DNA from: Candidatus Zhuqueibacterota bacterium
GTDB lineage: Bacteria; Zhuqueibacterota; Zhuqueibacteria; Thermofontimicrobiales; Thiofontviventaceae
NCBI GenBank assembly: GCA_016931935.1
Contig: JAFGDW010000300.1
Span: 55,274-119,273 of the forward strand
Direction of reading: 5' to 3'
DNA: 64,000 nucleotides
The position numbers and the translations under genes are program-made. Below, in pieces: positions 2,092 to 64,000 of this stretch (the stretch's first letter is position 1; the number at the start of each line of letters is the position of its first letter). The notes below the pieces were generated by a model. That model made no database searches and was not told the origin of the DNA. It saw only the letters and a program-made list of their open reading frames with translations.

Positions 2092-3492
2092 TTAACGATC
2101 GACCAGCGCCGCCATCAGTTCTGCTTCACAGACCAGATCTTCCCCCACAAAAGCTTTGCCTGCCATTTTACAAATGGATCGTCTGTATTTGACCATCTCC
2201 AGTTCGAACCGAAGCGTATCTCCCGGAACAACCGGTTTTCTAAATTTCACGTTATCGATATTGGTAAAATACACAAGTTTTTCGCCGGGTTCCATTTCCG
2301 CATTCAGCATAAGAACGCCACCGACCTGGGCCATCGCTTCGATAACAAGCACGCCCGGCATAATCGGGCGGCCCGGGAAATGCCCCATGAAGAAGGGTTC
2401 ATTCGCCGTAACATTTTTAATACCGACCACACGTTCAAGCGGTACCAAATCAAGTATTTTATCGACAAGTAAAAAAGGATATCGATGTGGCAGAATTTGC
2501 TGAATTGCATTGATATCCAAAAATACACCTTTGGTTTTCGGCTCACCGGGCTGATATTTTAACCGGATCTTTTTCTTCTCTATTTGTTTGCGCAGCATTT
2601 TCACCAATTCAATATTTGCTGCGTGCCCAGAGCGAGCCGCCATAATATTTCCGATAATTGGCACACCCAACAAAGCCAAGTCGCCAATAATATCCAGCGC
2701 TTTATGCCGGACCGGTTCATTTTTGAACCGTAACACTTTGCCATCCAAAATGCCATTTTCGCCCAACACAACATCAGCAGGAACGTTGAACATTTTCTTT
2801 AATCGATCAAATTCGCTTTCATCGAGTTTGCGGTCAATAATTACAATCGCATTATCGACATTTCCGCCTTTGATCAATCCTTGTTCTTTTAATTGTTCTA
2901 CTTCACTTAAAAAACAAAACGTACGGGTGGGTGCAAATTCCTTCACAAATTCATCTTCGAGTGAATAGAGTGCGGTGTATTGCGTTCCGAGCGCCGGATT
3001 CCGGTAATCCACCATGCACGTAATTCGGAATGTATCGGATGGAACGACAACAATATCCACGCCGCGTGGCGGATCGGTGTAGGCAATCGTGTCTTCGATT
3101 ACCAAATAATCCTTGGGGAAATCCTGTTCTTCAAACCCTACTTTGAGTAATTTTTCCACGAATGGCATTGAACTACCATCGCCGACAGGTGGTTCATTCG
3201 TGTTGATCTCGACCAGAATATTATCGATTTCCAGGCCGGCAACCGCTGCCAAGACATGTTCAACGGTATGAATGGTCGCACCGTTTTGGGTTATGGTGGT
3301 TCCTCTGGAAATATCGGTGACATGATCTATATCGGCTAAAATTTCTGGTGAATCAGCTAAATCAGTTCGTTTGAAACGAATTCCTGAATTCACAGGGGCT
3401 GGCTTAAATGTGATTGTCGACGCATTTCCGGTATGCAGCCCAATACCGGAAAGCGATATTTCACCTTTGATCGTTCGCTGATTCTTTAACAT
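2092..3492 (-). CDS. lpxC/fabZ: Bifunctional UDP-3-O-acyl-N-acetylglucosamine deacetylase / 3-hydroxyacyl-ACP dehydratase (LpxC-FabZ fusion)
   Basis: 466 aa. The N-terminal half has LpxC motifs ([16 protein letters not shown]...HVLAAVAG) and the C-terminal half a FabZ hotdog fold ([11 protein letters not shown]...[13 protein letters not shown]). This fusion is typical of Bacteroidota and Chlorobi-type genomes. Confidence 0.9.
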
Positions 3493-35093: not shown

Positions 35094-35461
35094 TTATATT
35101 GCAATGATATTCCATTATGAATATTCCGGTAGAGAAAATTCATACCATATCCAGTTTCCCTATCCTCCCAACAAATCTCATATCCACCAATCGCCAAATA
35201 AGGCATTCCCAAATCGATAATAGTTTATAATTTTATCCAACATCTTCAGGTAATTCTTTCATCTATCTTCTGCCATACGGACGTTTCCTCCATTAATTAA
35301 AAAATCTTCATTTTGTTCAACAATTGTTATTTTTTCAATTCGAAAAACGATGAAGTATAAATGGAAGCATATCCGAATTACCAAATCAATGTCGGTTTCT
35401 GCAATTTTTTCTTGTGGGAAGCAGAACTGCTTATTTACTAATCAGAGGAGGCGCTACGATC

Positions 35462-38400: not shown

Positions 38401-40858
38401 ATACGGCGGTTCGGTAGCAGATATGGCCTACGATGAAGTACACGACATCGTTCTGGCAGCATTGAGCGCGCCGCAATCCGTATTTATTTCCGCTGACAGT
38501 GGTTTAACCTGGACGGCTGCATTCCCATATGATTCGTTGGAATTCTGGACCGGCCAGGAACGTCGCGGCTTTGGTGGCCGGGCTGACCAGGTACAAGCTT
38601 CCCTCGGATATTGTTATGCCAAAACCAGTCAGGAAGCTGGTACACTTACCGGTTCCCAGGTATCGTTTGATGGTATTAACTGGAAAACCCTGCTTGATCC
38701 ATACATGGTTGGCAATCTGTTAGGTACAACTTTTCCGGGACAAGCCAATGGTCAATATGCCATCGGCTCACTGTCAACGTATGGCCCGGTAGCGCTTGTA
38801 AGCGCGATGAATTTCGTATTTCGCACTACTGACGCCGGACAAACGTGGGATATTAGTGTCGTGCCAAATTCAACGGCATTTAATACAGATAAAACCATCA
38901 CGACAGTCGAATTATGTCGGGATGATCCGACGGGGCGCAGTTTTTATGTGGTGTTAACCGGTAATAACGGCTCATCCAATCCGGAATTCTATCGCACCCA
39001 TGATGGGGTTGATTTCAGTCGAATCTTTATCGTCTCCGGCGCTGATACAGTTCACAACGTTATGGGCATCACAACACATCCGTATGCCAGCGATACTTTA
39101 TGGGCAGCAGCTGTTGATGAAGGCAAGCCGACACTCGGCGGATTGTGGCGATCATACGACGCCGGAGCCAATTGGACAATGATTTACCCGGGCGGGAATC
39201 CCCATAATGCACCAATGGCAACAATTTATGAAGACATCAGCTATCCGGGACCAAATAATCTCCGAATTTTCATTGTCGGCGAAAACAAATATTCTGACGA
39301 TTTAGGCACCACCTGGGTAGAATTCAGTCCGCAAACTGATCCATATGTAGATCGTGGATCAAACGCCAGAGCGGGTATCGGTCATGTGACCAACACCGAT
39401 ATTTATTTTGCCATGGGTGACGGTGCGCCATCGCGCTCAACGACGGGTATTGATGGCTACTATCTGTTTGTGCCAACCGGACTTGAAGGCATAAATATCT
39501 GGGACATTGCCCAGGTACCTAACCAGGTTGATAAAGTCTATCTGGCAACAAGTGTCGGTATTGCCTATACATCCGAGTTTACGAATACCGCATTAACTTC
39601 CACGCAAAAATGGGCATCACCCTATGGCAATTATCCGATCAATCCGGCGCAAGGCGGTAATACCGGATTTACTGCGATTGAAATTGATCCGAACAATACG
39701 TTGCATGTTGTGGCAGCCAATGGCAATGCAATTTTTGTAACGATGAACGGCGGCTTTACCAATAACGATTGGGATGCCACCCAATATAGCGAAGTTAGCG
39801 GATTGGACGAATCCGAGTTTAAAGGACGTGGCGGCCAGGTCAGCCAGATTACATTTATCACCAGCGACACGTTGATCGCCTCTGTATTTTGTGAACATTC
39901 GCTTTATGGCGTGCTCATGCAAAGCACCGATGGTGGCTACACCTGGTCAACAATGCCACAAGCCGGTGAACATGCGTTCCGTACTGTTATTGCCGCGTGG
40001 AATAGTGCACAGGATTCGGTTGTGCTCTATGCCGGTGGAGGCCATGTTACAGAAGATGTGTTTACTCATGCCACCCTGATCGATTCGGGTGCAGTCTATC
40101 GTTCCGAAGATCGGGGCGCGACATGGTCACAAGTCTCCACGGCTCCACATGGTGTATTCAATCCCGCGCCGTATCCGTTGCCGATTAACAATATGATGGC
40201 AAAACCGGGCAGCCTGGATACGCTGTACATGGCGTGCGGTGAAAATTTGAGCAATGCCATTGTCCGAACGTTTGACGGTGGCGTCACGCTCGAATCGTTG
40301 AGCATGGCCGCAGTCGGCATGTTTGAGGGCGCGTTTGAAGCGGTGGCGATCAACAAGAATCATCCCGATAGCGTGTACTTTGCCGTTCGTCGTGATATTT
40401 TGGTGTACGATGCTGCTTCAAACACCACAGCCACAATGTTCCGCGGCTACCCGGGTGAATTGACCCACGCATTGTTATTTGATGAGTTGACAATGGGATC
40501 ATCATCCGGTTTCTACCAATTGACAGCGCCAACGAATACCGATCCCAGTGCGCTTGATGGTAAGAAAGCAACAATTCCGACACGAGTGGAACTGGCGCAG
40601 AACTATCCGAATCCGTTTAATCCATCTACCAGCATTATTTTCTCACTACCGCAGGACGGTAACGTGAAGCTGGAAGTATTCAACCTGATCGGCCAGCGAG
40701 TCGCCACGCTGCTTTCCGAACCACGGAAAGCCGGTGAACATCGCATCAGCTACCAGGCGGATGATCTGGCCAGCGGTATCTATTTCTATCGGCTACAGGT
40801 CACCTTTGCCAACGGACAGAAGCGAATTCTGTCGAAGAAGTTGATGGTGATCAAGTAG
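35462..40858 (+). CDS. Giant secreted protein: N-terminal Ig/cohesin-like domain, 5 tandem ~155-aa novel repeats with poly-Pro linkers, BNR/Asp-box-like beta-propeller region, and a T9SS type-A C-terminal sorting domain
   Basis: Start set at MQQYKK (signal peptide; AGGAGG RBS at ~35444). Repeats span aa 206-975 of the track ORF with a conserved F.F......PDS.F...FA.T.P.PADSQ.SRI core, ...LVHDG.DPF... and IEV.A..L.L. Followed by PPPPPPPPPPPTP. Then six or more SxDxGxTW Asp-box motifs (SADSGLTWT, TTDAGQTWD, SYDAGANWT, SDDLGTTWV, STDGGYTWS, SEDRGATWS). C-terminus QNYPNPFNPSTSIIFSLPQDGNVKLEVFNLIGQRVATL...SGIYFYRL matches the Por-secretion CTD signature. Confidence 0.8.
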   Translation: MQQYKKLFIITLVLLSTIFSMQIALVAQGQPPESPKGPMGIPFMLAFMPGDSAKIPVEFFESVPADSQVSGFAFTLVKNSSDLKFHGVDTAATALSHWTVDYTMSGDSIRVQANAPGGVYFTKPDGPPALLCAIRGMIYQGAAVGDSIGLQIRHVSIVKKGQTVALPDSMFGPSMIKLQTGDTPPQPGNTIAFTFLDTQSWPDSSFSIDFAVTEPVPADSQVSRIRGVMEAIPNEVMWSSSESMLSPQFSGWSLIVTPESGLVEFDLEAPNGTYLVHDGNDPFVIFSLGGNILSTSMPGTNIEVQADRLFLTIKGTELVTDPDKVHSGFIKIMGDEPPPPPPGNELSFSFGHSFSKPDSGFGLDFMITQPIPADSQLIRIHAKVVANPTEVIWTSNGQILAPELSNWALDIIPGDEFVEFELMSIDGSPLVHDGQDPFIVFNLTGVVKGYATPDHAIEVVATELELEVNNKVVTADPQIIMPGKIMLDDGENPPPPPDHGYLFSFNEAISDPGSYFNLMFALTSPVPPDSQLSRIRMVVQSMPPALNWAETGHSLQPIMSDWTLTVTPGPEATEFDLVAPPGVFLATDSSMSGLNLVLFSGEVAPDAPAQGMVDVQAKELFLTLNGVEKTIDPITVQPGKVLLGNGEEPPPGQQSLFAFFDTFSKPDSNFAMEFAITQPIPADSQLSRICAVVRAMPQELDWSPTGHMLAPGMESWSLNVTVGNDSMMFDIQAPTGQFITHDAMVPLVLATFVGGVRPSASVEQNIEVKAENLKLTIKGIEHEFDPGMIQPGKVRLNNNPDGPPPGGESLFIFFDTNAEPGTDFLLDFAVAMPVPADSEISRLQIGLKIEPNLLVWNADESKVAEELADWTLTSTAAGDSMEFDLQSTSGSFLVHDGFDPYRIATLAGSVQASAPQNAIIQLTATKIYVTMHGVVTSIPPTSIPPVKIMLGGHVGPPPPPPPPPPPTPISSGDGRMNLGLYGGSVADMAYDEVHDIVLAALSAPQSVFISADSGLTWTAAFPYDSLEFWTGQERRGFGGRADQVQASLGYCYAKTSQEAGTLTGSQVSFDGINWKTLLDPYMVGNLLGTTFPGQANGQYAIGSLSTYGPVALVSAMNFVFRTTDAGQTWDISVVPNSTAFNTDKTITTVELCRDDPTGRSFYVVLTGNNGSSNPEFYRTHDGVDFSRIFIVSGADTVHNVMGITTHPYASDTLWAAAVDEGKPTLGGLWRSYDAGANWTMIYPGGNPHNAPMATIYEDISYPGPNNLRIFIVGENKYSDDLGTTWVEFSPQTDPYVDRGSNARAGIGHVTNTDIYFAMGDGAPSRSTTGIDGYYLFVPTGLEGINIWDIAQVPNQVDKVYLATSVGIAYTSEFTNTALTSTQKWASPYGNYPINPAQGGNTGFTAIEIDPNNTLHVVAANGNAIFVTMNGGFTNNDWDATQYSEVSGLDESEFKGRGGQVSQITFITSDTLIASVFCEHSLYGVLMQSTDGGYTWSTMPQAGEHAFRTVIAAWNSAQDSVVLYAGGGHVTEDVFTHATLIDSGAVYRSEDRGATWSQVSTAPHGVFNPAPYPLPINNMMAKPGSLDTLYMACGENLSNAIVRTFDGGVTLESLSMAAVGMFEGAFEAVAINKNHPDSVYFAVRRDILVYDAASNTTATMFRGYPGELTHALLFDELTMGSSSGFYQLTAPTNTDPSALDGKKATIPTRVELAQNYPNPFNPSTSIIFSLPQDGNVKLEVFNLIGQRVATLLSEPRKAGEHRISYQADDLASGIYFYRLQVTFANGQKRILSKKLMVIK
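35546..38340 (+). repeat. Tandem in-frame coding repeats (~465-480 bp unit, ~6 copies counting the diverged first domain) inside the giant CDS
   Basis: Periodic protein motif (PADSQ[VL]SRI) recurs every ~155 aa. Units are separated by Pro-rich linkers (PPPPPPGN, PPPPPDHG, EPPPGQQ, GPPPGGE, PPPPPPPPPPPTP). Diverged at ~30-40% aa identity, so ancient rather than recent duplications. Confidence 0.6.
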
Positions 40859-49841: not shown

Positions 49842-50762
49842 TTAATCGTTCCAGGAAAGTATTTTCATTATTTTTTTACTGCCGCCTACATCACCAAACA
49901 ATTCCAGGTACTCCGGATTATATTGAATCGACACATGATTTCCGGTACCGGAAATGTCACCATTGGCCAAAATGCCGCCTACAACAGAACTCTCTGATGG
50001 AGAACCTCCACCGGTAAAATCCATTTCATAAATAACTTCTGATGTCGGATTTAACATATAAAGTACGCCTTCTACACGTGCAGATCCATTAATAACTATA
50101 TCTTTTTCCACGATAAAAATGCCATAAATATGTGTTCCACCACTGACTTTCATATCGCCTTTAATGTAGGTAATATTGGGAATTCCGGCTGCAGAATCGG
50201 CGTAAAAACTGCCATTGGGATATCCATCAGGAGGTTTGACCAGATCATTTGGATCGCCAAAATAATGCCCCTGAGAATCTGCCTTTGTTGCGAGGCCAAG
50301 AATATCAATGTATGGCATTTCACTGGCATTTGTCACCATGAGTGTGCTGTCGACATTGCGATTTTCGTCGAGCGGGGTAACTTTGTCAACATCACCGGTA
50401 GCATAAATTGCTTGCAGACCGACTTCAGATGTCAATTTCAAATCAACAGATACCTGATTCGTATAACTAGCCACATGTCCGACAGAAGTAAGACGCACAA
50501 GCGAATCCATATCATTGATACTTACTTCAAACGAGCCCTCATTACTGGACGTTTCATCGTACCCATCCCGCCAGTTAAAATTGCGTGAGATTTTTGAGAG
50601 TGCAAGGTTCATTCCGGATGTTGCCATATTCAAAGCGCCAATCTGTCCATATTCTTCAACCATTTGTTCGTGCTGCATTGACATACGATTTTGCTGGGTC
50701 ATCAATCCGGATGTAATTGTAAAGCTGATCCCTGCTAAAATGAGGAGTATTGCTTTTCCCAT
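49842..50762 (-). CDS. PilX-like (type IV pilus minor-pilin/assembly, PilX_N-like) membrane-anchored protein, paralog A
   Basis: 306 aa. N-terminal anchor MGKAILLILAGISFTITSGLM, followed by ...ALNMATSGMNLALSKI (PilX_N-like A..AEaG..A helix). C-terminus VEGVLYMLNP...GGGSPSESSVVGGILANGDISGTGNHVSIQYNPEYLE is typical of PilX-like proteins. No prepilin-peptidase G/FTLIE motif. Confidence 0.4.
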   Translation of the reverse strand: MGKAILLILAGISFTITSGLMTQQNRMSMQHEQMVEEYGQIGALNMATSGMNLALSKISRNFNWRDGYDETSSNEGSFEVSINDMDSLVRLTSVGHVASYTNQVSVDLKLTSEVGLQAIYATGDVDKVTPLDENRNVDSTLMVTNASEMPYIDILGLATKADSQGHYFGDPNDLVKPPDGYPNGSFYADSAAGIPNITYIKGDMKVSGGTHIYGIFIVEKDIVINGSARVEGVLYMLNPTSEVIYEMDFTGGGSPSESSVVGGILANGDISGTGNHVSIQYNPEYLELFGDVGGSKKIMKILSWND

Positions 50763-51203: not shown

Positions 51204-52118
51204 TTAATCTTTCCAGGTAAGAATTTGCATAACTCTCTTGCTCTGCCCAATCGAGCCAAATAATTCCATGTATTCTGGCTTATATTGTACCGAAATATGA
51301 CTTCCAGTTCCGGATACATTGGCGTTTGCCAATACCCCACCAACCACAGAGCTCTCTTCAGGGGTACCACCACCTAATGCTGTCAAATCGTAATAAACTT
51401 TTGCGGTAGGATTAAGTAAATACAAAACTCCTTCGACACGAGCTGATCCGTAAAGGATAATATCCTTTTCAACAAGAAAAATTCCGTATATTCTACTTCC
51501 ACCCTGAACTTTCAGAGTACCTTTGATATATGTAACATTCGGAACGTTCCCGACCTTATAAAAACTCCAGTTTGGGTAGCCGTCGTAAGGTTTGATTATA
51601 GCAGACGGGTCTCCAAAAAATTGGTATTGACTTACTGATAATTGTATCAACGGGACCAGATTTAACAATGGCATGGCATCGGCATCCTGAATCAATAAGG
51701 TGCTATCGACATTTCGATGCTCATCCAAAGGTATGACGTTATCTACCGTCGCCGTCGAATAAATCGCATATCGTCCGGCTTCTGTGGTTAATCGTACATC
51801 CACCTGAACTTTATTGCTAGCACCTGATGAATGACCTGTCGACGTAATCCTTACGAGTGAATCCATGTCATTGACTTGCACATCAAATGACCCTGATGAA
51901 ACTGAAGTCTCGCTATAACCTTCCCGCCACGTATAATCACGTTTAATTTTAGAAAGCGCCAGATTCATCCCCGAAGTTGCCAAATTCTTTGCGGCTAATT
52001 CTTCGTATTGTTCAACAACAATTTCATTTTGTTCGCTGATCTGTTTTTGGTGATTTACCAATCTGGTTGAAAAAGTAAAACCAAGACCAGCAATTATCAT
52101 TAACATTGCTTTGCCCAT
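51204..52118 (-). CDS. PilX-like membrane-anchored protein, paralog B (~55% aa identity to paralog A)
   Basis: 304 aa, same architecture. Shares LATSGMNLALSKI..., SGSF.V.VNDMDSLVR.TS.GH, NVDSTL, NVTYIKG.LKV.GG..IYGIF.VEKDI...GSARVEGVLY.LNPT and ESSVVGG.LAN...SGTG.H.S.QY.PEY.ELFG with paralog A. Confidence 0.4.
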   Translation of the reverse strand: MGKAMLMIIAGLGFTFSTRLVNHQKQISEQNEIVVEQYEELAAKNLATSGMNLALSKIKRDYTWREGYSETSVSSGSFDVQVNDMDSLVRITSTGHSSGASNKVQVDVRLTTEAGRYAIYSTATVDNVIPLDEHRNVDSTLLIQDADAMPLLNLVPLIQLSVSQYQFFGDPSAIIKPYDGYPNWSFYKVGNVPNVTYIKGTLKVQGGSRIYGIFLVEKDIILYGSARVEGVLYLLNPTAKVYYDLTALGGGTPEESSVVGGVLANANVSGTGSHISVQYKPEYMELFGSIGQSKRVMQILTWKD

Positions 52119-53081: not shown

Positions 53082-54119
53082 TTATCGCATGGTTTTCGTT
53101 TTTGCAGTTGTCCACCATGATAAAAATATTTTATAAAAATCTTCGGTGACTTCAGGGGTGGGTGTTTTTTGTTGGGAAATAAATGATGAAATCGTGCCAT
53201 CAGCAGCCCGTTTGATTGAGCCCAGCCGTAAGTAGTTGCTTTTCTCTTTCAATCCGCTATCGATGAGCAGCGTTAAATTATTTCGTTCGATTAAACAAAT
53301 TCGAATTTCCAAAATATTTATTTTGCACAGCAAAAACAACTCGTATACTTTTGAATTTATTTCAAACCGCGTATGTGACGTAAGATTTCCCGGCTCATAA
53401 TTTAAAAACCGTTTAAACACACTGCTAAATACCACGGGATTCGATTGCATCCACTGAATCAATTCGTGAATAATTGGCGATAAATCCTTTTCGTTTTCCT
53501 TAATGTCATCCGGGCGCAATTCAATTTTTATAATTTCCGCATCGGGGATTGCCTTGTCTACTTCCAATTTGTTAAATTGCGTTGGTGCAACAAACCGGAA
53601 TGCCTGCAAATCCAGCGGGGTGTCATCCGGCAAATCGACGATAATTTGTGGCACCTGTCCGGCTTCGGGAAACGGCACATCGTGCAGACTGGCGTATTCG
53701 GCCTGCTGCATCGAGACATTTACCTGATTCTTTGGCTGTTGATGCCGGGCGAACTGCATTTGCCGATCCACTCGCTCAGTCTGTGGAACAGCCAGCGCCT
53801 GGTATGTTTTACGGGGAAGGTCCAGCTTGCTGGTGATGTCCGCATCCAGCGATTCAATTGACGGGATAATAATTGCATTGTCGCGGTATCGCGTGATTTT
53901 GTCATCGGGCTGCGGTAATCGTGAATGGCCGGTTTTCTTTGGCGTTGTTTCTTCAATATGAAAAATTGTCCAGTCGATTTCTTTCTGTGGTGCACGAAAC
54001 AGATACTTCCCCGGAGATACCCGGATTCCGGCGAGTAACAAGTAGGTAAAAATCAACCCGATCATTAATATAAGATCGCAGATGCGTTTTTCTATTTTAA
54101 CACGATCACTAAATTTCAT
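53082..54119 (-). CDS. Membrane-anchored hypothetical protein in the TonB position of an exbB-exbD-exbD operon, with no recognisable TonB C-terminal domain
   Basis: 345 aa. N-terminal TM ICDLILMIGLIFTYLLLAGI and a modestly Pro/Gln-rich middle. Its start overlaps the exbD stop by 11 nt. Confidence 0.45.
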   Translation of the reverse strand: MKFSDRVKIEKRICDLILMIGLIFTYLLLAGIRVSPGKYLFRAPQKEIDWTIFHIEETTPKKTGHSRLPQPDDKITRYRDNAIIIPSIESLDADITSKLDLPRKTYQALAVPQTERVDRQMQFARHQQPKNQVNVSMQQAEYASLHDVPFPEAGQVPQIIVDLPDDTPLDLQAFRFVAPTQFNKLEVDKAIPDAEIIKIELRPDDIKENEKDLSPIIHELIQWMQSNPVVFSSVFKRFLNYEPGNLTSHTRFEINSKVYELFLLCKINILEIRICLIERNNLTLLIDSGLKEKSNYLRLGSIKRAADGTISSFISQQKTPTPEVTEDFYKIFLSWWTTAKTKTMR

Positions 54120-54510
54120 AATGAATGCTCTTGGGAATGCCGTTCATTTCACACAGGTCAATCAGATCGACGGTTGTTTGAATCATTGTATTTTCGTCCG
54201 GGTAGATTATCACCATCATATCCATGCCCTGCGCACGCCAATCGTCACGCACACGCTGGATCAATGCATCGACATCGGATATTTTGGTGATCAATGGCCA
54301 AAAGGTATCACCGCATGATAGCTGGAATTCGGTATCGCTATTAACGCGAATGGTTAATACCTGTCGTTTGACAATCGCCGGACTTTCGTTTCCACCGGTA
54401 GGAAGTTTAATTTGGGTTTTGACAGTAAAATCGGAAATACCGATAAAACCGAGTAATAATATCAACACAACATCAATTAACCGAATGATGAGACCACCTT
54501 TGCTGAACAT
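54109..54510 (-). CDS. exbD: ExbD/TolR biopolymer transport protein
   Basis: 133 aa. GGLIIRLIDVVLILLLGFIG TM plus an ExbD periplasmic domain. Confidence 0.8.
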   Translation of the reverse strand: MFSKGGLIIRLIDVVLILLLGFIGISDFTVKTQIKLPTGGNESPAIVKRQVLTIRVNSDTEFQLSCGDTFWPLITKISDVDALIQRVRDDWRAQGMDMMVIIYPDENTMIQTTVDLIDLCEMNGIPKSIHYEI

Positions 54511-54567: not shown

Positions 54568-54966
54568 TCATTTCCCTTTCCGAATCACATCAATGCCTTT
54601 CAGCAACTGCCGCTGATCACAAAGGTTTGCCAGTGCGATGGTGTATTTTATCGGCGTATCCCAATTCGCGCGAATTTGCACCCGTGGCCGTTTTTCAGAA
54701 TCTTCCAGGCCAGCGAGCTGTTTGTCTATATAGCCAACAAGTTCATCATGGGACGTGAGCGTTTGCGTTTCATTGTCCACAAGAAAATTCCCATCCCGAT
54801 TAATCCCGATAATTAAGGTTTCCCCGTTTGACGGATTGGTAAGTGGCGTGGCTTCACTCGTTGGCAGCTCAATTTGACTATGCCGACTGATTTCACTAAT
54901 GGAAATAAAACCAAATAACAGAATCAGCACCACATCAATCAGCCGAACGATTATTCCACCTTTTTG
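54568..54966 (-). CDS. exbD: ExbD/TolR biopolymer transport protein (second copy)
   Basis: Start at MQKGGIIVRLIDVVLILLFGFISI. Paralog of the downstream exbD. Confidence 0.8.
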   Translation of the reverse strand, partial: QKGGIIVRLIDVVLILLFGFISISEISRHSQIELPTSEATPLTNPSNGETLIIGINRDGNFLVDNETQTLTSHDELVGYIDKQLAGLEDSEKRPRVQIRANWDTPIKYTIALANLCDQRQLLKGIDVIRKGK

Positions 54967-54970
54967 CATG

Positions 54971-56473
54971 CTATTGCCCCAATACTTCAAATTCTATTTT
55001 GGAACGACGCAAGCCCTTGGCGGTCACAACGATTGAATTGAATCCCGGCTCGGTATTCAGTGTGAAATAACTTTTGGCATATCCGTTTGAATCGGTTTGT
55101 GCAACATAACTATTGCGATTGCCCGGGAAGTACCCTTTCCCCATTTTGACTTTAAAAAGCACAGTTTCATTGGGAATCGGATTCTTGAAACAATCGAGTA
55201 ACTGGACAACAAACGGTTCACCAATTTCCCGACCTGCGGGTAAATTTTGATGATTCCCGGATACATATTTTAGCTCGGATGGATCTGCCGGACGCCCCAG
55301 TGCTTCAAACTGGACAAATTTACCGTTATTGTTCAGCCGGGCATTCACAATATTAGTACCGGCAACATTGCCCAGTGTCAGATATGTTTCCGCCAGCCCT
55401 GCTTCATCGGTCAAAATTTCTTCAACTTTATTGCCGTTTTTAAATGTACCGTTGCCATTTTCAATTTTGAAAGTAACCAGTTGATGGATCATACTGTTTC
55501 CGTCTTCATCGTGTACTTTTACCTGCAACGGTTTTTTAAGACGTGTATTCACGGGCGCCGCCTGATGATCTCCGGCCAGCGGTGCAATTGTCAGGTGCTT
55601 CGGCACGGATTCCGGTTCCGGCGTGACTTTTTTCTCGGAAGTAAATAAGTTCTCATCTTCAAAATCATTAATCTCTGCTGCTTCATGTTGCGGCGCTTGA
55701 TAGCGGAAACCTTGTTGCTGGGAGATGAGCAACCGCAATCTCAATTCTTCACCTTTAGTCAGAATCGTATCCATCTGTTTGCGAAATGCACCCTGCAATT
55801 GGGTTGAGAAAAAATTCAAAACAATACTGACGACCAATCCCATCAACGTGGTGACGAGCGCCAGTCCCATTCCATGGAGTATCACTTGATTGTCGAGATT
55901 TCCACGGAAAAATGTAACGAACATTCCCCAGACAGTTCCCAACAAACCGAGCGCCCCGGCGGTATCCGATAAGAACGATATTTTCGATTGGAATGTGCTG
56001 AATTTATCCTGCTGTAACTGAACATGATTGGTTATTTCGTAATGGGCATCGACCGCCGAATTTGTCGAGCGATACACATTCAGCATGTTCATGTATAGCT
56101 GATGGAGTAAATTATTCGGTGTATTTTGTACTGTCTGTTCGATATGCCGGAGCGATGCCGCTTTTGTATTCAATTCTAGAATATCTTTTGATCGGCGTTT
56201 GTCCATAAGTAAATCGGCATATCTGTAAAGCATTGTGGCTAAGCCAGCGACCAAAACCAGGATAATCACCCAGCGTAATCCACCAGCCAGTCGGGTGATT
56301 TCCCAAATCGATTTAAAATCGGATAACCGGGTTAAAGAGCCGGGATCGACCACTTGAGCAGCGGCAACATCGAGCGTCGAATCGATTGCTGCTGCCGCCG
56401 GGGCGTCCTGGCAGAATCCTTGTGAAGTCACAAGGATTATAAACATCATGAATAGAAATGCAACGCGCTGCAT
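54971..56473 (-). CDS. MotA/TolQ/ExbB proton-channel family protein with a ~230-aa C-terminal extension containing two Ig-like (Big/invasin-like) domains
   Basis: Start at MQRVAF (signal peptide). Three TMs with the ExbB signature AGALGLLGTVWGMFVTFF / GMGLALVTTLMGLVVSIVLNFF. C-terminus LQVKVHDEDGNSMIHQLVTFKIENGNGTF...EILTDEAGLAETYLTLGNVAGTNIV... and a second similar unit ...TVLFKVKMGKGYF...AQTDSNGYAKSYFTL...NSIVVTAKG resemble Big_1-type beta-sandwiches. Confidence 0.7.
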   Translation of the reverse strand: MQRVAFLFMMFIILVTSQGFCQDAPAAAAIDSTLDVAAAQVVDPGSLTRLSDFKSIWEITRLAGGLRWVIILVLVAGLATMLYRYADLLMDKRRSKDILELNTKAASLRHIEQTVQNTPNNLLHQLYMNMLNVYRSTNSAVDAHYEITNHVQLQQDKFSTFQSKISFLSDTAGALGLLGTVWGMFVTFFRGNLDNQVILHGMGLALVTTLMGLVVSIVLNFFSTQLQGAFRKQMDTILTKGEELRLRLLISQQQGFRYQAPQHEAAEINDFEDENLFTSEKKVTPEPESVPKHLTIAPLAGDHQAAPVNTRLKKPLQVKVHDEDGNSMIHQLVTFKIENGNGTFKNGNKVEEILTDEAGLAETYLTLGNVAGTNIVNARLNNNGKFVQFEALGRPADPSELKYVSGNHQNLPAGREIGEPFVVQLLDCFKNPIPNETVLFKVKMGKGYFPGNRNSYVAQTDSNGYAKSYFTLNTEPGFNSIVVTAKGLRRSKIEFEVLGQ

Positions 56474-56489
56474 GTCAATCTCCTTAATT

Positions 56490-58193
56490 TCATTGCCGTT
56501 TCGCATGTCGCACTGCAGGGAGTGACTGAGCCTCCTGCTGTAATTCCGGTGTCATGACCGCCGGCTCAGTCGAAAAGTCAATGCTCGTTCGTTGATGTCG
56601 AGTCACAATTACAAGCTGCCCTTTTGCGGAACGTTGAATATTTTTATTGTCATAAGTCCAGGTGAACTGATAAGAATATACGCCAGGGCGCAGCTTTTCC
56701 ATGATCGGTTTGTCCAGTTCCCATACAATCCGTGAAGGAATCCGGCCAATACCATCAAACCATTGGATGCCCAGCCCCTTGTCATCCTGGATTATCAAAT
56801 GCCACGATTTTGCCCGGCCACGTCGTCCTTTAATGCGGAATTCGATGCGGTCAGGGTTACATTTATAAGATTCGTTCGATTGATTGGTTAATTTCTGATC
56901 ATTTTTTCCCGGCATTGGTAATTTTTCACGGCGGATTCGGGCAGTCGGGATCGCCTCGAGCAACTCGTCCGCTACCTTTGTGGAGTCACGCATTAAAATC
57001 TCCGCGATGCCGTTCGCCGGATCGATCACATGCTGTCCAACCTTTTGTAATGATTGCTGATATGCCGCTGTCAAGATTTCTGTTGAATCCTTTGAACCAC
57101 CAATAAAAACGATATACCGTGTTTGCGATTCTGGAGCAACGGGTTTATTTATTTCAGTTTTTAATGCGGTGGTCAAATGCCGCCACTCACGTTTGTTCAA
57201 TTTTTCATCGACACGCTCTTCAGAACAAATTCGTTGAACCTCAATCTGCTTTACCGAAGCGTCTACCTGAAGCAGTGCATCTTCTACCGGTGGTGCGGCT
57301 TTATAATTGATGATTGGACGTTCATCACCAAAAGCAAATACCAGACCAACCTGATGCGAACCGATGCTGAAATCCTGAAATTCATTCGTCGGATAGTCGT
57401 ACGTGTAGAACATTTGCATACGATCGGCAACACTCAGTCGTCCCTCGAATTCAATACCATCGGACGTATAACCAAAACGTAATATGCCGCGATCGTTAAT
57501 TTTATAGTCAAGCATTCCGCCGAGCGTTTCCTGATCCAGCAGTGTGATACCAGCAGCGAAACTGCCACGCATATAGCTAATGCCAACATCGAGACGATAA
57601 GGCAGGCGCGCGTCACCGCCGACAAGCGATAAATTTGGCTCGGTTAAATTACTCATGCCGACACCGATCCGCAAATCATAGCGCGGCTGAAACAATAAAC
57701 CAACGCCTACACTATGCGCCAGCGATTGCACGCCATTGGCAAATAACGGATCGTTCGCATCACCCAACTGAAACTGATCCTGCTGATACGACTGATAGAA
57801 GATTTGCCACGATGCTCCCACACTTAGCGATTCCAGCAACCGATAGGCTGTCTGTGCCTGAATGTGTGACTGCTGGTACATCGCAATGCCAAATTGCTGC
57901 CCGTTGATACCAATCACCCACTCACGATCCAACAGGAACGGACTGGTAATATTGAAATAATTCGCCCGCAAGCCAAACTTGTCCTGCTCAAGAAAGCCAA
58001 CGTGCAGCATCTTAACACCCAGCGATACATGCCACGGCTGCAGTGCAATCACAGCCGGATTAATCAGCGAACTGCGGCAATCAAACACATCCGCCGGATT
58101 GCTGTCAATCCAATGTTGGGCTTTCAGCGGCCCGACTGCCACAAGTATGCTGATGGTGACAAGAATGAATGTTTTCGGACGATTTAATTTCAT
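56490..58193 (-). CDS. PorP/SprF-like T9SS outer-membrane protein with ~270-aa C-terminal extension
   Basis: 567 aa. Signal peptide MKLNRPKTFILVTISILVAVGPLKAQ. The N-terminal ~290 aa carry ...SSLINPAVIA (family NPAxxG/A motif) and an alternating beta-strand pattern. It lies directly downstream of a type-B-CTD cargo gene, which is the classic sprB-sprF arrangement. The C-terminal part (WHLIIQDDKGLGIQWFDG...PGVYSYQFTWTYDNKNIQRSAKGQLVIV) is beta-sandwich-like. Confidence 0.5.
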   Translation of the reverse strand: MKLNRPKTFILVTISILVAVGPLKAQHWIDSNPADVFDCRSSLINPAVIALQPWHVSLGVKMLHVGFLEQDKFGLRANYFNITSPFLLDREWVIGINGQQFGIAMYQQSHIQAQTAYRLLESLSVGASWQIFYQSYQQDQFQLGDANDPLFANGVQSLAHSVGVGLLFQPRYDLRIGVGMSNLTEPNLSLVGGDARLPYRLDVGISYMRGSFAAGITLLDQETLGGMLDYKINDRGILRFGYTSDGIEFEGRLSVADRMQMFYTYDYPTNEFQDFSIGSHQVGLVFAFGDERPIINYKAAPPVEDALLQVDASVKQIEVQRICSEERVDEKLNKREWRHLTTALKTEINKPVAPESQTRYIVFIGGSKDSTEILTAAYQQSLQKVGQHVIDPANGIAEILMRDSTKVADELLEAIPTARIRREKLPMPGKNDQKLTNQSNESYKCNPDRIEFRIKGRRGRAKSWHLIIQDDKGLGIQWFDGIGRIPSRIVWELDKPIMEKLRPGVYSYQFTWTYDNKNIQRSAKGQLVIVTRHQRTSIDFSTEPAVMTPELQQEAQSLPAVRHAKRQ

Positions 58194-58382: not shown

Positions 58383-61300
58383 TTACCGCGCCAATACCAC
58401 ATATCCCCGCGATACATGGCGATCTCCGTCCTGGAGTACGTACAAATACACGCCCGGTAAAACTAATTGTCGGTCGCGGTTCATTCCATCCCAGACAAAT
58501 GTTGATGCGGATGGGGTATGTAACGTAATGACCGGTCGCCCCTGCATATCAAATACTTTTAATGAAGGGTGACTTAGCTGGAACCGTGAAAAATCAAATT
58601 CCACTTCGTCGTTAAATCCATCATTATTCGGGGTGAACGGATTGCTGCTAAGCCGCAATTCACCTTCGTTGACACGGATATAGATATCCACGACATTGTT
58701 CGTCTCATCAGATTCGGTGATACGATTGTCCGGATCGACGGTAAAACGAATCAGGTGTCTGCCAATTGTATCAAATTGCACGGCTGCATCCATCCTCTGT
58801 TCAAAAGACACTGGCAGATTATTCACTGTTTCCGCGTCGATGATTTCACCTTTGTGTTCAAACTTCATATCGAATGGCTGCTCCACGTCAACTTCGTTCG
58901 CGATCACCTGTCCGTGAACATTCACAGATGAATGAACAAGCAAAGTGGTGCTGTCCGCTGAAATCGACGCCACCAAATCGGGTAACGCTTCACGAATAAA
59001 AAAATACGATTGCCAATTTTGCAGACAATTTGCCGGTTCGCTGAGATCGCATGCATCAACGCGTACAGTCACTTTTTCTCCTGATGCAAAACCTGTATCC
59101 GGTGTGTATTCAATTATAAATTCATTCGGAGTACCGGAAATATCAGGTGTTACATCAATATTATTCACCTGCACCTGAATGCTCTCCTGCGATACGCCTG
59201 CAACATCATCCAATAATCGAAATAGTATCGTCGGTCGGTTCAGTACATTGGTTTCGCCTGGTGCAGGTTGCATATCGACGATGTAGGGCGCAATAGTATC
59301 AACACGCGTCCAAAAAATAAATTCAGCATCGCTTTTGTTCGGCGGCACGATCAAATCGGCTGCATTCGCTGAAATACGGATTTGCTGATTGTATGCAAAG
59401 CGATTTTCGGGCTTCCATTCAACCGTTGTGTATTTGGGTGTTCCAGCAATATTGGGTTGGACAATTTCATTATTCACTCGTAACTGAATCGAACCAGCGT
59501 CCACTCCACTTTGCGTGTCCGTAATTTCAAACTGAAGTGAACTGGTAACAGGAACTTCAACGGCAGAATCGCCGGGTGAAATAAATCGAATAACCGGCGG
59601 CTGCACATCTGTTTCGGGATAAAATACGTATTTTTCCGTCGGCATTATGTTAGGAGTATCCGCAAGGTCAGCAGCGTCAATTTCCACTGTTACGCTGTCG
59701 CCATAAGAAAATGGCGTCGCTGGTTTGTACATTAATTGATAATCATAAACAAAACCGTTAATCATCGGTCTGACTGACCGGCCATTGATGCGCATTTTAA
59801 TTGATTGTAGATCGACACCCGACTGCAAATCCGCCAGATGCACGGCGACGGAATCAGTAATCCGGACATTCGTTTGTCCGGGCGTCGGATGGTGGCCGTA
59901 AGTAAACGGCGCTTGTCTGTCACGTCGGTCAGTCAACTTGAACGTGTAGGTTGAATCCAACAAATTTGCCGGATGTGAAAGATCGCGTGCATGAATCCGA
60001 ACACGAATTTGCTGGCCATGCGCCTGATTGGGTGGCATGTGTGACGACACAAACCAAACATCCCCTTCGCGATGCATTTCCAACACCGATGCCATTGAAA
60101 CGTCGTTCACCACAATCCCAACCGCCGATGTATCGACGCCGGCGACAGCATCCGTTAATCGGAAGGCAATATGGGCGGATGGTAGCACGCCTGTATCTCC
60201 CGGTGCAGGCGTTAAATAGCTCAAAATCGGCGGCTGCTTGTCTTCTATGATTGAAAATGAATAATCATCGGGATTCATCTGATTGGGATGCCGGGCATAA
60301 TCCTGTGCGGTCAGCCGGACAGAGACAATTTGATTGTACTGAAATAGTGTATCCGGTTGCCAGCTTATCCGATACCCCTGACTGAGTTTCTGAAATGATG
60401 GCACGACACTCCCGCCATTCACGCGGAGATTGACGAAACTGGTGTCGACACCGCTCATATCGTCCTGAATAGTCATCGAAATGGCTGTATTTCTGGGCAC
60501 CTGCTCAGCCGACTTTGCCGGTTGGTGCGCCGATGTCCAGGGCGGAAGCGAATCCCGCAATGTATAAAACTGATACTTCAATTCAGATGCATTTCCCGGC
60601 TGGGCCCTATCCTTTGCGGTAATGCGGATATTGATAGTATCATTTTCCATAAATTGCTGTGCTGGGTGAAATGTCAGTGTGCTGCCATCCACAAGCAGCG
60701 GTTCTGCATTTTTGGCATCGACATACAAACGCACATCGGCAACACCCGTGCGATCATCCGTTACTTTGAAAGAAATATTCGTATTCAGTGGGACATTCGT
60801 TTGACCTGCTGTTGGCGATACCGGTGCTATCACCGGTCCCAATGTGTCCTGTGCAATAAAGAATCGATAGAAATAAGGTGGCTGAATCGCATTCGGCGGA
60901 TTTGATTTATCGGCTGCAGCTACTGTGACACTCACGGTATCATTATAGGCAAACGACAATTCGGGCATCAAAATCCGTGTATGCAACATATCGCCATCAA
61001 TTGTCGTTGGCACAAGCGGATTATTCTGCACGTGCACCTGTATCGTGTTCCAATCCACACCAGCGATTGTATCCGCCAGCATAAATTGAATGGCGAGCTG
61101 TTTCACATCATTGGTCGAATTTGCGAGTGGATAAACAGGCACAACCCGGGGGGGCGTCACATCACGTTGCAGGGAAAATTGATACGATTCATCCATAGCA
61201 TTTGGCGTGTATGCCATATCCTGTGCTGTTACACGAACAGTCACATGATTATTGAATAAAAACGGAGTATTCGGCTGCCAGGTGAGCGTAATTATTTTGT

Positions 61301-63224
61301 TCTCAGCGCCAATCTGCATTGCTGGCATCACCGGTGCGTTATTGACCCACATGTGAATCGAATTCACCTCGACGCCACGATAATCATCATGTACCTCGAC
61401 GATAATTGGTTTATCCAGGGGCGCATCCAATGCATCGGCTAATGGTTGCACAGGATTAAGGTAAGGCGCAACCGAATCCGGAAGCATTTTGCCGAGCCCA
61501 TAATACGTAATCAATGTCTTGGATTCACCTGCCTGCATAAACACCGGTTCCCACCACATGGCGACAGCGCTATCGAACGTAATTCTGCTGGTATCGTTAA
61601 GGGTGTAATCCCATGGTTGGCGGAAGATATCGCGCCAGCGCAAAATCGCGAAACGGTCGGGAACCGTCGCATCGTATTTTTTTAGCGTTCCCTGTGCGGA
61701 AAAAATCGTACGGGTTGGATCGCCCTCAATCGCCGTCCACCACTCGGGAATTGCTGCCCCAATAAACTCCTGCTCCATCTGGACAAAATCACCATCCGCA
61801 GTTTTGATGGGCGCACCATCATTTTCACCAAGCATGGTATCAAACAAAATCCGTAACCCAATAACTCTGCCAGCCCCGTTATTGGTAATTGTGTATCTGA
61901 GCTCAGCCGTATCTTCGATTCTATCCACCGACCACTCACTACGCGTCAGCGAAATTGTTTGATCAACACGTACATTCTTGTATGTCCAACTCCAGGTAAC
62001 GGCCGGATCGCCATTTCCCAGTTGAATAGCTGTCGGAATGCTTCGTTGACCGTTAGTCACCACAGCCTCACCCTGGTCCGATCCGAACACTGCCACTTCA
62101 TCTTCAACTTTGAGGGTTGTATATGATGTATGCGGCCAGGGATGGCCGAACAGCAACGGCTTGTTATCGTCCCAGAATGTATTTGGGAGACCTTCCAGCG
62201 TTTGCATGGAGAAATTTGTGCCCGGATATTTATCCGTGACCATCACCTCAATAAATTCATTTTGAATTTTTGTATAAGTCACCGGTGTCAATGAAAAATT
62301 GATATTGGGGATGGTATCACCTGAAGTCACGACAACCGGATATGGAATTTCGGCGGTATGATATTTTGTTGGGTCGACACTGAAAATATATATACGATAA
62401 TTTCCGGGAGCTAATCCTGCTGCACAGTATTCACCGGTTTTCCAGCTACTATTGGCTTCGGAACACCACTGATGCGTTTCCCAATCTTCGACAACCACCC
62501 AGGCAGATATAGGCGCAGCAGGCTGGCCATCGTCCAGTACAAGCCCTTTTATTGCCCCACCTTTAGCCAACTGAAAATCAATATCATCGACCGTGTCACC
62601 AACTGTGACCGTTACCGGATAGGCCATATCCCACGTCGGCGAATTTTTATAGTACGTGGTAATGTAACCGAGTCCCGGATTTCCGGCCAGGATAATATGG
62701 CGTCCCGCTGGCAATGCCGGACTGATATATTCTCCCTGTCGGTTATTCATCGCATAGCCACGATCGATTTTTTCCCGGGCATCATAAAAACCAACATTAA
62801 TCGCATCACGAACTATGTCACCGTTGGGCGTACGTATAATACCCCGGATAAAACCGCCCTGATCGAGATGGAAATCGATACCAGTGATAATACTTTCCGG
62901 ACTTATTTTGATGGTTACAGCATCCGCCGGATTCAGAACGTTATTATAGTACTCATCCACATAATCATCCACATTAACGACTCGAACAATATATTCGCCA
63001 GTCGCGATGGATTGAATACGGTAATGACCGGAGGCGTCTGTTCTGGCGTCATAGTCAAAATGCGTGCCGGCACTCTGCTTGGCGCGAACCACGACATCCG
63101 CTAACGTACGACCATCATAGCTGTATACTGTGCCTTCAATAGTGCCTGCGTGTGCAAATTCATATGAATATAGCATGGCCACGACACCCAAAAGCACACC
63201 GATTCGATGCAAGTGCATTTTCAT
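58383..63224 (-). CDS. SprB-like giant cell-surface adhesin with T9SS type-B C-terminal sorting domain
   Basis: Start at MKMHLHRIGVLLGVVAMLYSYEFAHA (signal peptide). N-terminus has three carboxypeptidase-regulatory-like domains (GTIEGTVYSYDGRTLADVVVRA...TDASGHYRI). Eight ~95-aa SbsA/Big_5-like Ig repeats follow, with consensus D..PP.I....P..G.TNV.....I.F...D..SGVD..SI...VN. C-terminus NPFTPNNDGFNDEVEFDF...VFDMQGRPVITL...WDGMNRDRQLVLPGVYLYVL matches the gliding-motility type-B CTD. Confidence 0.75.
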   Translation of the reverse strand: MKMHLHRIGVLLGVVAMLYSYEFAHAGTIEGTVYSYDGRTLADVVVRAKQSAGTHFDYDARTDASGHYRIQSIATGEYIVRVVNVDDYVDEYYNNVLNPADAVTIKISPESIITGIDFHLDQGGFIRGIIRTPNGDIVRDAINVGFYDAREKIDRGYAMNNRQGEYISPALPAGRHIILAGNPGLGYITTYYKNSPTWDMAYPVTVTVGDTVDDIDFQLAKGGAIKGLVLDDGQPAAPISAWVVVEDWETHQWCSEANSSWKTGEYCAAGLAPGNYRIYIFSVDPTKYHTAEIPYPVVVTSGDTIPNINFSLTPVTYTKIQNEFIEVMVTDKYPGTNFSMQTLEGLPNTFWDDNKPLLFGHPWPHTSYTTLKVEDEVAVFGSDQGEAVVTNGQRSIPTAIQLGNGDPAVTWSWTYKNVRVDQTISLTRSEWSVDRIEDTAELRYTITNNGAGRVIGLRILFDTMLGENDGAPIKTADGDFVQMEQEFIGAAIPEWWTAIEGDPTRTIFSAQGTLKKYDATVPDRFAILRWRDIFRQPWDYTLNDTSRITFDSAVAMWWEPVFMQAGESKTLITYYGLGKMLPDSVAPYLNPVQPLADALDAPLDKPIIVEVHDDYRGVEVNSIHMWVNNAPVMPAMQIGAENKIITLTWQPNTPFLFNNHVTVRVTAQDMAYTPNAMDESYQFSLQRDVTPPRVVPVYPLANSTNDVKQLAIQFMLADTIAGVDWNTIQVHVQNNPLVPTTIDGDMLHTRILMPELSFAYNDTVSVTVAAADKSNPPNAIQPPYFYRFFIAQDTLGPVIAPVSPTAGQTNVPLNTNISFKVTDDRTGVADVRLYVDAKNAEPLLVDGSTLTFHPAQQFMENDTINIRITAKDRAQPGNASELKYQFYTLRDSLPPWTSAHQPAKSAEQVPRNTAISMTIQDDMSGVDTSFVNLRVNGGSVVPSFQKLSQGYRISWQPDTLFQYNQIVSVRLTAQDYARHPNQMNPDDYSFSIIEDKQPPILSYLTPAPGDTGVLPSAHIAFRLTDAVAGVDTSAVGIVVNDVSMASVLEMHREGDVWFVSSHMPPNQAHGQQIRVRIHARDLSHPANLLDSTYTFKLTDRRDRQAPFTYGHHPTPGQTNVRITDSVAVHLADLQSGVDLQSIKMRINGRSVRPMINGFVYDYQLMYKPATPFSYGDSVTVEIDAADLADTPNIMPTEKYVFYPETDVQPPVIRFISPGDSAVEVPVTSSLQFEITDTQSGVDAGSIQLRVNNEIVQPNIAGTPKYTTVEWKPENRFAYNQQIRISANAADLIVPPNKSDAEFIFWTRVDTIAPYIVDMQPAPGETNVLNRPTILFRLLDDVAGVSQESIQVQVNNIDVTPDISGTPNEFIIEYTPDTGFASGEKVTVRVDACDLSEPANCLQNWQSYFFIREALPDLVASISADSTTLLVHSSVNVHGQVIANEVDVEQPFDMKFEHKGEIIDAETVNNLPVSFEQRMDAAVQFDTIGRHLIRFTVDPDNRITESDETNNVVDIYIRVNEGELRLSSNPFTPNNDGFNDEVEFDFSRFQLSHPSLKVFDMQGRPVITLHTPSASTFVWDGMNRDRQLVLPGVYLYVLQDGDRHVSRGYVVLAR

Positions 63225-63720
63225 GATGCTTTGGTGCAATAATCTTGTTTTGGATTTTTTAAAGATAAATAGGATGGACGAAATTATCCTATGTTCCCTT
63301 TCCACGGCTGCAAATATAGGATGGCTTCCTCCATTTGAACTGCTTTATCAACTGGAGGTTTGTAACAAAGATGATAGAACTTGCGACTACATTATAGCAA
63401 AAGGTTGGCTAAAATGCAAGTTTTTTTTACTAAACAGAGATAATTTTATCAATAAATATATTATCTTTATGGGATTATAATAAAATCAAATATATCATTT
63501 CAATAGATACAAAATGTTAACCCAATATTCTCAACCACTAATACGCATCAAAAAAATGTCACCATTCTATCAATATTGTAACTTTTCTTGAATTACCGGA
63601 TTGTAATTCATAAAAAACAATATAGCTATGAAAGATAATTTGTAATCGTTCACAGGGTTTCAGAATGGTACTCCAATTTTTGGTGCCCTACATACTGTCT
63701 TCAGGAAACAGTTGATCAGA

Positions 63721-63787: not shown

Positions 63788-64000
63788 TCACCCTGTCTCC
63801 CACTCTCGATGCCTGGTGTTCTAATATTACGACCGAGCCACGAAAATATTGCCTTCATACACCTGTGAACGGTTACGATAATTTGTATTTTTCAATTAAT
63901 GATGAAGCGAACTTGCTACACCTTATTATTTCAAAATCAGATAGTACGTTTAACGTCAGCGAGCCGTCAAACGGGATGCGCAAGTCAGACAACTTAGTCC

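Follow-up and report, generated by a model that had tools for sequence, protein, structure and literature searches.

In the Bacteroidota, every type B substrate of their type IX secretion system (T9SS) remains bound to its own PorP/SprF-like carrier (PMC9143113, PMC12618676). PorP can be linked to the cell wall through a separate periplasmic protein, PorE (PMC9143113), and SprF is linked to a track driven by the proton-motive force (PMF) through a Cys-X-Cys motif in its short periplasmic C-terminal tail, which forms a disulfide bond with GldK (PMC12635249). The route by which energy passes from the inner membrane to T9SS carriers and gliding adhesins was clarified only in 2025, through the SprF tail and GldK, and for the Bacteroidota only. 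Here, we describe a computational analysis of a 64,000-nucleotide stretch of DNA (the window) from contig JAFGDW010000300.1 of a Candidatus Zhuqueibacterota bacterium, in which a PorP/SprF-like gene with a large C-terminal extension, termed here long PorP, lies between the gene of a presumed type B cargo and the genes of an ExbB/ExbD-type motor. We consider it about as probable as a coin toss (0.5), judging from sequence and gene order, that long PorP carries a type B cargo and that its fused periplasmic tail acts as an adaptor to a dedicated Exb-type motor.

The long PorP open reading frame has exactly the position and length that an earlier reading, made from the letters of the window alone (the sequence-only reading), had given it, and the parts of its product map onto the window as follows.

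56490..58193, minus strand: long PorP open reading frame, ATG start, 567 residues
58116..58193, minus strand: residues 1-26, signal peptide with a hydrophobic core (...PLKAQ); hydrophobic segment at residues 8-26
57327..58115, minus strand: residues 27-289, hatch and predicted 14-strand barrel, with the N45-P46-A47 motif and ending at G278-S279-H280
56886..57326, minus strand: residues 290-436, charged, predicted periplasmic spacer, with a Pro-rich linker, a hairpin at 308-328 and a low-confidence alpha/beta region
56571..56885, minus strand: residues 437-541, terminal beta-sandwich, likely of the FlgD_ig/CHU_C (T9SS C-terminal domain, or CTD, -like) superfamily
56490..56570, minus strand: residues 542-567 and the stop codon, a poorly conserved C-terminal end that lacks Cys-X-Cys

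Pfam model PF11751 (PorP_SprF) scores the protein at 35.0 bits against a gathering cut-off of 22.3 (E 1.5e-8) and aligns residues 94-285 with profile positions 67-272 of 273. The stricter NCBIfam model TIGR03519 matches the same stretch at 40.8 bits, far under its cut-off of 90.55. Because the first model is passed and the second is not, we class the protein as a divergent PorP/SprF member, acceptable at the Pfam (superfamily) level only; of the two profile hidden Markov models (HMMs) that the sequence-only reading had named as a check, one bears out its family call and the other does not. NCBI lists an identical protein under the name 'type IX secretion system membrane protein PorP/SprF [candidate division KSB1 bacterium]'. 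The PorP/SprF annotation thus pre-exists, and the new part is the tail and its genomic context. An artefactual gene fusion or frameshift is ruled out, because the same architecture recurs in the nine independent protein clusters described below. Scans for promoters and terminators gave results at chance level and were left unused.

An AlphaFold2 model was built on an alignment of the nine family sequences (mean predicted local distance difference test score, pLDDT, 68; a two-sequence alignment gave 34). The model contains 14 beta-strands within residues 54-288, mostly at pLDDT 77-93. The best Foldseek match in the PDB is 8gl6_F, a chain of the Flavobacterium johnsoniae T9SS translocon complex, followed by FadL, TodX and OmpG, and PorV and FadL are the top structural matches of the barrel. 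The modelled fold therefore places this domain among the FadL/PorV-class outer-membrane beta-barrels, and 14 strands have been described for the barrel of PorP itself (PMC9143113). N45 and P46 are invariant across the long-PorP family, the N45-P46-A47 motif corresponds to the hatch motif of FadL-class barrels, and the barrel terminates at an invariant G278-S279-H280. The protein has the build of PorP/SprF proteins, in which the barrel spans ~270-300 residues: a signal peptide, an N-terminal NPA hatch motif and a FadL/PorV-class barrel whose 14 strands fall within the 12-16 that had been set beforehand as the expected range. Together with the Pfam match and the place of the gene directly downstream of a type B CTD gene, they uphold the family assignment of the sequence-only reading, which the lack of either an HMM match or a barrel would have overturned.

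The gene directly upstream of long PorP encodes the presumed cargo.

58383..63305, minus strand: presumed cargo, a 1640-residue surface protein with CarboxypepD_reg, multiple Big_5 immunoglobulin (Ig)-like repeats, CARDB and a C-terminal CHU_C domain

This gene ends 189 nt upstream of the long PorP start, and an alternative start at 63224 would give a product of 1613 residues. Its CHU_C domain (PF13585) scores 34.9 bits against a cut-off of 27 at residues 1554-1637, within a type B T9SS sorting domain that comprises residues 1554-1640 and has the motif NPFTPNNDGFND...VVLAR. Big_5 and CARDB score 103 bits and 35.4 bits, respectively, and the NCBIfam model TIGR04131 falls just under its cut-off (28.5 bits against 35). 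The contigs of six other family members were recovered, and the loci are cited here by number, the source contig being L010. A CHU_C cargo gene stands directly upstream of PorP in L001, L002, L005/6, L007, L008 and L009, and inside the cassette in L003; the cargo C-termini of eight loci align well and have a common NPFTPNGDGxND...LAR pattern. The same order, cargo and then shuttle, has been described for cognate type B pairs (PMC12618676, PMC9143113), so that the adjacency of long PorP to its presumed cargo, as first proposed, is the canonical arrangement. Gene position makes the CTD of the upstream protein the candidate ligand of long PorP, and both the identity of the barrel and its pairing with this cargo are well supported. 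As a side observation, the type B CTD protein of L003 (L003:13035-13874) has only 279 residues and is encoded between exbB and exbD; the position and size of the cargo within the cassette are thus flexible.

In canonical PorP/SprF proteins the periplasmic C-tail is short. The tail of long PorP comprises residues 290-567 (278 residues), of which 29% are charged versus 16% in the barrel, in agreement with the large, charge-rich C-terminal extension noted from the sequence. It is predicted to be periplasmic because the number of modelled barrel strands is even. Residues 290-436 are modelled at pLDDT 37-58 apart from the hairpin at 308-328. Residues ~438-541 form a seven-to-eight-strand beta-sandwich at pLDDT 81-89, and the model thereby confirms the sandwich that had been proposed for the tail end; W464, G481, P486, W491 and Y506 in it are invariant. 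Across the nine sequences, mean pairwise identity is 0.27 for the barrel, 0.15-0.18 for the intervening ~150 residues and 0.27 for the terminal sandwich, and the spacer, variable in sequence, has a length that is conserved family-wide. Because identity falls and rises again in this way while spacer length is kept, the layout is one in which a variable spacer joins the membrane anchor to a conserved module at the end. The recurrence of the architecture in nine clusters, with a sandwich as conserved as the barrel (0.27 each) and a spacer at 0.15, indicates that the tail is under selection.

Neither the whole tail nor any of its parts has a Pfam match at E<=10, to OmpA_C or another peptidoglycan-binding domain or to any other family, or a PDB sequence match, and the sandwich sequence of the window protein has no direct Pfam match to FlgD_ig (PF13860) or CHU_C (PF13585). 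When the nine members are scanned directly, FlgD_ig is found in three (best E 5e-4) and CHU_C in two, all sub-threshold. A profile of the nine sandwiches aligns by hhalign with the profile of the cargo type B CTDs at 94.6% probability (E 7e-8, 59 columns), versus 0.1-0.3% for the Big_1 and CARDB domains of the same cassette and 39% for a single type A CTD. With these Big_1 and CARDB controls, generic Ig-fold likeness is ruled out as the cause of this match. Additionally, the best PDB sequence match of the sandwich, a weak one, is the C-terminal sorting domain of PorU, and the tail profile reaches the FlgD_ig/CHU_C repeats of OmpA-family proteins at E values down to 6.5e-13. These comparisons suggest that the terminal sandwich is likely homologous to the FlgD_ig/T9SS-CTD superfamily, with neither Pfam family's own cut-off reached. 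The hhalign match spans the second half of the CTD only, and in alignment with the cargo CTDs the sandwich lacks the NPFTPNGDG region of a genuine type B signal. A Cys-X-Cys motif is found in none of the nine family members, three of which (P0015, P0030 and P0036) have no cysteine at all; disulfide coupling of the SprF type is therefore excluded.

An exhaustive HMMER search of 1.84 billion protein cluster representatives with the tail profile found 41 proteins. The full tail is matched only by the window protein and P0002 (42% identical), and the last ~90 residues of the tail recur at the C-terminus of seven more clusters of 568-604 residues. All seven align through the barrel: four are above the PorP_SprF cut-off (P0028, 63 bits; P0035, 46.9; P0015, 45.8; P0030, 35), two are below it (P0016 and P0036) and one, P0020, has no match. 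By sequence, therefore, long PorP constitutes a small family of nine clusters, whose members are labelled as KSB1, Zixibacteria, 'bacterium' and 'uncultured Bacteroidetes bacterium' metagenome-assembled genomes (MAGs). Among 185,579 species-representative genomes, a search with the closest pair found no close relatives, and the same kind of search with P0053 returned only that protein's own MAG. Some other matches of the tail profile (P0003-P0007 and P0009) are OmpA-family proteins of ~1000 residues, one of them from Elusimicrobia, in which 5-9 tandem domains, each scored by Pfam as both FlgD_ig and CHU_C, are followed by a peptidoglycan-binding OmpA domain. Such repeats indicate that CTD-like sandwiches also serve as periplasmic building blocks outside T9SS substrates.

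Downstream of long PorP lies a cassette of genes whose coding regions abut or overlap, the first of them overlapping or abutting the PorP stop codon.

54971..56506, minus strand: MotA/ExbB-family proton-channel protein, 511 residues (500 if it starts at 56473), with two Big_1 Ig-like domains at the C-terminus
54568..54990, minus strand: ExbD paralogue 1 (ExbD1 lineage), Pfam ExbD at 44.7 bits against 25.4, with the transmembrane (TM) Asp in RLIDVVLILL
54109..54510, minus strand: ExbD paralogue 2 (ExbD2 lineage), Pfam ExbD at 47.0 bits against 25.4, with the conserved TM Asp
53082..54119, minus strand: u345, a 345-residue bitopic inner-membrane protein with an N-terminal TM segment (residues 16-34), a low-complexity linker and a conserved, novel C-terminal domain of ~125 residues
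52400..53200, minus strand: u266, a secreted protein, probably of 223 residues from a start at 53071, conserved in the cassette and with no Pfam match

The gene that follows PorP encodes a MotA/ExbB protein in all six contigs that extend downstream (the window, L001, L002, L003, L005/6 and L007), the six on which downstream synteny is based. Where the contig continues, the order is ExbD, ExbD, a u345 orthologue, usually a tetratricopeptide repeat (TPR) protein, and a u266 orthologue. BLASTP confirmed the orthology of the cassette genes, with ExbD1, ExbD2, u345 and u266 orthologous in every locus long enough to show them and with two separate ExbD lineages maintained across loci. This synteny persists at PorP identities of 19-26% and across different candidate-phylum labels. 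The essential Asp within the R-L-I-D-V segment of the TM helix is kept in 8/8 ExbD sequences of both paralogues. The ExbB homologue scores 54.4 bits for MotA_ExbB (cut-off 22.9) and 48.5 bits for Big_1. The NCBIfam equivalog models for ExbB, TolQ, ExbD and TolR all score far below their cut-offs, so that the genes cannot be assigned as orthologues of either Ton or Tol components.

Orthologues of u345 (~313-358 residues) are encoded at L002:13441-14382, L003:14830-15906 and L005:14242-15297 and share the motifs LIQWM...NP and FY.IF.SWW in the C-terminal domain. A search with the four orthologues gave no Pfam match at E<=10, TonB_C (PF03544) included, and no PDB profile match; hhalign against the source genome's own TonB_C protein gave 0.1%, and a His in the TM helix is present in 0/4. 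These results rule out u345 as a true TonB. By analogy with other systems, it is a candidate force transducer. The cassettes of L002, L003 and L005 each end with a u266 orthologue (E 1e-22 to 3e-29).

Two further features of this region were observed. The ExbB homologue has ~270 extra C-terminal residues that contain two Big_1/Invasin-like Ig domains, and no TM helix is present after residue ~233; canonical ExbB topology would put these domains, normally extracytoplasmic, in the cytoplasm. The ExbB orthologues of L001, L005/6 and L007 have this extension, and those of the Zixibacteria locus L002 and of L003 lack it. Beyond u266 lie two tandem paralogues (51204-52118 and 49842-50762, both minus strand) of 304 and 306 residues. 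Their identity is 57.5%, both have a hydrophobic helix at the N-terminus (MGKAxLxIxAG...), no Pfam family matches them, and the other cassettes lack them.

We propose that long PorP would be the dedicated outer-membrane carrier of the giant type B CTD protein encoded directly upstream. The carrier would collect its cargo at the T9SS translocon and hold it anchored on the cell surface, as in the Bacteroidota, and its tail, spacer and binding-type sandwich together, would span the periplasm and dock onto an envelope-spanning machine encoded immediately downstream. This machine would consist of the ExbB proton channel, two distinct ExbD proteins, the membrane-anchored u345 with its TonB-like layout, and the secreted protein of ~230 residues. 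PMF would be passed to the carrier-cargo complex and might be used for extraction from the translocon, for movement or for conformational change. We infer the contact between tail and motor, and the use of energy, from the conserved gene order only. A bolder version of this proposal, which we consider quite unlikely, is a self-contained, proton-driven surface machine of uncultured bacteria of the Fibrobacteres-Chlorobi-Bacteroidetes (FCB) group, in which an ExbB/ExbD1/ExbD2 stator and a transducer of a new class, the u345 family, would pull the fused PorP tail and so move or actuate a giant adhesin. Such a machine would be powered by Exb proteins and would offer an alternative to the GldLM/GldK track behind SprF-SprB gliding in the Bacteroidota. 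On this bolder view, the cassette may stand, in evolution, midway between the Ton/Tol-type and the T9SS/gliding-type ways of energising outer-membrane proteins.

Several points weigh against the proposed carrier and its coupling to the motor. The protein falls far short of TIGR03519, and u345 lacks both TonB_C and the conserved TM His of TonB and TolA, so that its putative role as a transducer comes from analogy. The family sample is small (nine clusters, six informative contigs), the structural model is based on nine sequences only, and the spacer is modelled at pLDDT <60. In addition, a TonB_C gene lies near the cargo, and the window ExbB/ExbD proteins might therefore serve ordinary TonB-dependent uptake. 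Finally, the sandwich is most closely related to repeats in OmpA-family proteins that bind peptidoglycan, with which static anchoring fits equally well.

The last of these points leads to the first alternative, in which the tail would act, much as PorE does, as an integral tether or spacer that ties the carrier-cargo complex to peptidoglycan or some periplasmic scaffold. The ExbB, ExbD, u345 and TPR proteins would then make up an envelope system, Tol-Pal-like or of another kind, that shares its regulation with the carrier and is not mechanically coupled to it. The best matches of the sandwich outside the family, being tandem FlgD_ig/CHU_C-like repeats in ~1000-residue proteins that end in a peptidoglycan-binding OmpA domain, fit such a tether, as do the TPR proteins of most cassettes, and in the Bacteroidota non-mobile type B cargo has been proposed to be anchored to the wall by PorP-PorE complexes (PMC9143113). 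However, the tail itself has no OmpA_C or other peptidoglycan-binding domain, and a static anchor leaves unexplained the invariable adjacency of a motor of one ExbB and two ExbD proteins with the proton-relay Asp intact. We regard this alternative as somewhat unlikely.

A second alternative is that the ExbB/ExbD/ExbD genes encode a general Ton uptake system that happens to be a neighbour, and that the tail has an unrelated role in folding, oligomerization or docking to the translocon. In the FCB group, Ton systems usually have the layout of an ExbB-ExbD-ExbD gene trio. An example is FSU_2400-2403 (PMC6851124). Moreover, the source contig encodes, just past window position 64000 (L010:1888-3253), a TPR+SH3_3 protein of 252 residues and a true TonB_C protein of 198 residues; both genes are immediately upstream of the cargo on the same strand, the TonB_C gene ~770 bp from it. 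Neither gene is conserved in the other loci. The PorP-ExbB-ExbD-ExbD-u345-u266 order persists in L002, L003, L005/6 and L007, where no TonB_C gene is found within 10 kb, and a TonB-dependent receptor gene is absent from every cassette. Synteny that holds down to 19-26% identity across phyla is improbable without functional linkage, and we therefore think a chance neighbourhood very unlikely. The suggestion of the sequence-only reading that the tail couples the cargo to ExbB/ExbD thus gains real, though indirect, support from the gene order in 6/6 contigs, but, given the TonB_C gene near the cargo, this one locus might still belong to a general Ton system.

The least probable alternative, to which we give almost no credence, is that the sandwich regulates cargo loading: as a decoy or a placeholder, in cis or in trans, it would take up the site at which a carrier or the translocon binds the CTD. 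The hhalign match to the cargo CTD with its clean controls and the weak match to the PorU CTD speak for it, but the match to the cargo CTD is limited to the second CTD half and omits the NPFTPNGDG region, all five conserved type B motifs are needed for secretion (PMC12618676), the sandwich is predicted to be periplasmic where carriers are understood to hold the CTD on their outer face (PMC9143113), and the motor cassette is left unexplained.

The remaining genes of the window are diderm housekeeping genes (lpxA, lpxC-fabZ, lpxD, skp, bamA, tamB and uppS), transporters and one type A T9SS substrate. The last (35414-40858, plus strand) is a protein of 1814 residues that combines a Sortilin/BNR-like region with a T9SS sorting domain of type A (Por_Secre_tail, 30 bits); its presence indicates that the general PorV-type route of T9SS is also in use in the organism. 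Within the envelope-biogenesis cluster lpxD / lpxC-fabZ / lpxA / skp / bamA / tamB, a single reading frame of 466 residues (2092-3492, minus strand) joins LpxC (residues 5-300) to a FabA/FabZ-like dehydratase domain (residues 334-458).

In the literature searched at full text, of which coverage is incomplete, there is no account of an extended PorP, of a PorP-ExbB/ExbD cassette, or of such a cassette in T9SS or gliding of KSB1 or Zixibacteria. The long-PorP family has a large folded module at the same periplasmic end of the same kind of carrier as SprF, and the carrier is consistently paired with a Ton/Tol-type motor and an unclassified membrane-anchored partner. Should the proposed coupling hold, motors of more than one kind can serve carriers of type B cargo, and the cassette would provide a new family of periplasmic force transducers and a compact module of 7-8 genes to reconstitute or model. 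If it does not, there is still a defined and conserved long-PorP subfamily with two conserved proteins as its constant companions. The proposal is a testable alternative to SprF-GldK coupling that rests on gene order in uncultured organisms.

Among known machines, the Agl-Glt gliding machinery of Myxococcus xanthus is powered by a TolQ-like and two TolR-like proteins that drive an envelope-spanning complex. Among the parts of this complex are TonB-like proteins of the inner membrane, TPR proteins, barrels of the outer membrane and a surface adhesin. No homology of barrel, adhesin or transducer to the proteins described here was detected, however, and the cargo of long PorP bears a T9SS type B signal and should need the T9SS translocon.

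The TonB-ExbB-ExbD and TolQRA systems, and the more recently described inner-membrane-anchored transducers (PMC12204202), resemble the cassette in gene content: one MotA/ExbB gene and two ExbD/TolR genes with the conserved TM Asp come first, then that of a protein which crosses the inner membrane once and has a long linker and a C-terminal globular domain, and a TPR gene is often close by. Such force transducers have been reported downstream of one tolQ-like and two tolR-like genes (PMC12204202). Unlike the transducers of TonB and Tol systems, u345 lacks TonB_C and the conserved TM His, and the ExbB of most long-PorP cassettes bears two extra Big_1 domains. The presumed outer-membrane target also differs: it is not a TonB-dependent transporter, with its TonB box at the N-terminus, but a PorP-type carrier that has a sandwich at the C-terminus.

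In the PorP-PorE-PG1035 system of Porphyromonas gingivalis, a 14-strand PorP barrel likewise holds a type B CTD protein on the surface, and its periplasmic side is joined to a multidomain partner with TPR and Ig-like modules (PMC9143113). PorE, however, is a lipoprotein in its own right and attaches to peptidoglycan by means of an OmpA_C-like domain, whereas the module of long PorP is fused to the barrel, lacks OmpA_C and has motor genes as neighbours.

Another close parallel is SprF of F. johnsoniae, the carrier of the gliding adhesin SprB. There, too, the gene of a PorP/SprF barrel lies directly downstream of that of a very large type B CTD protein, and the periplasmic C-terminal end links the carrier to a PMF-energised apparatus (PMC12635249, PMC9143113), as we propose for long PorP. 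The means of coupling would be different. The SprF tail is short and joins GldK of the GldKLMN track through an invariant Cys-X-Cys, whereas the tail of long PorP has 278 residues, a folded sandwich and no Cys-X-Cys, and the motor genes beside it are of the ExbB/ExbD type, not GldL/GldM.

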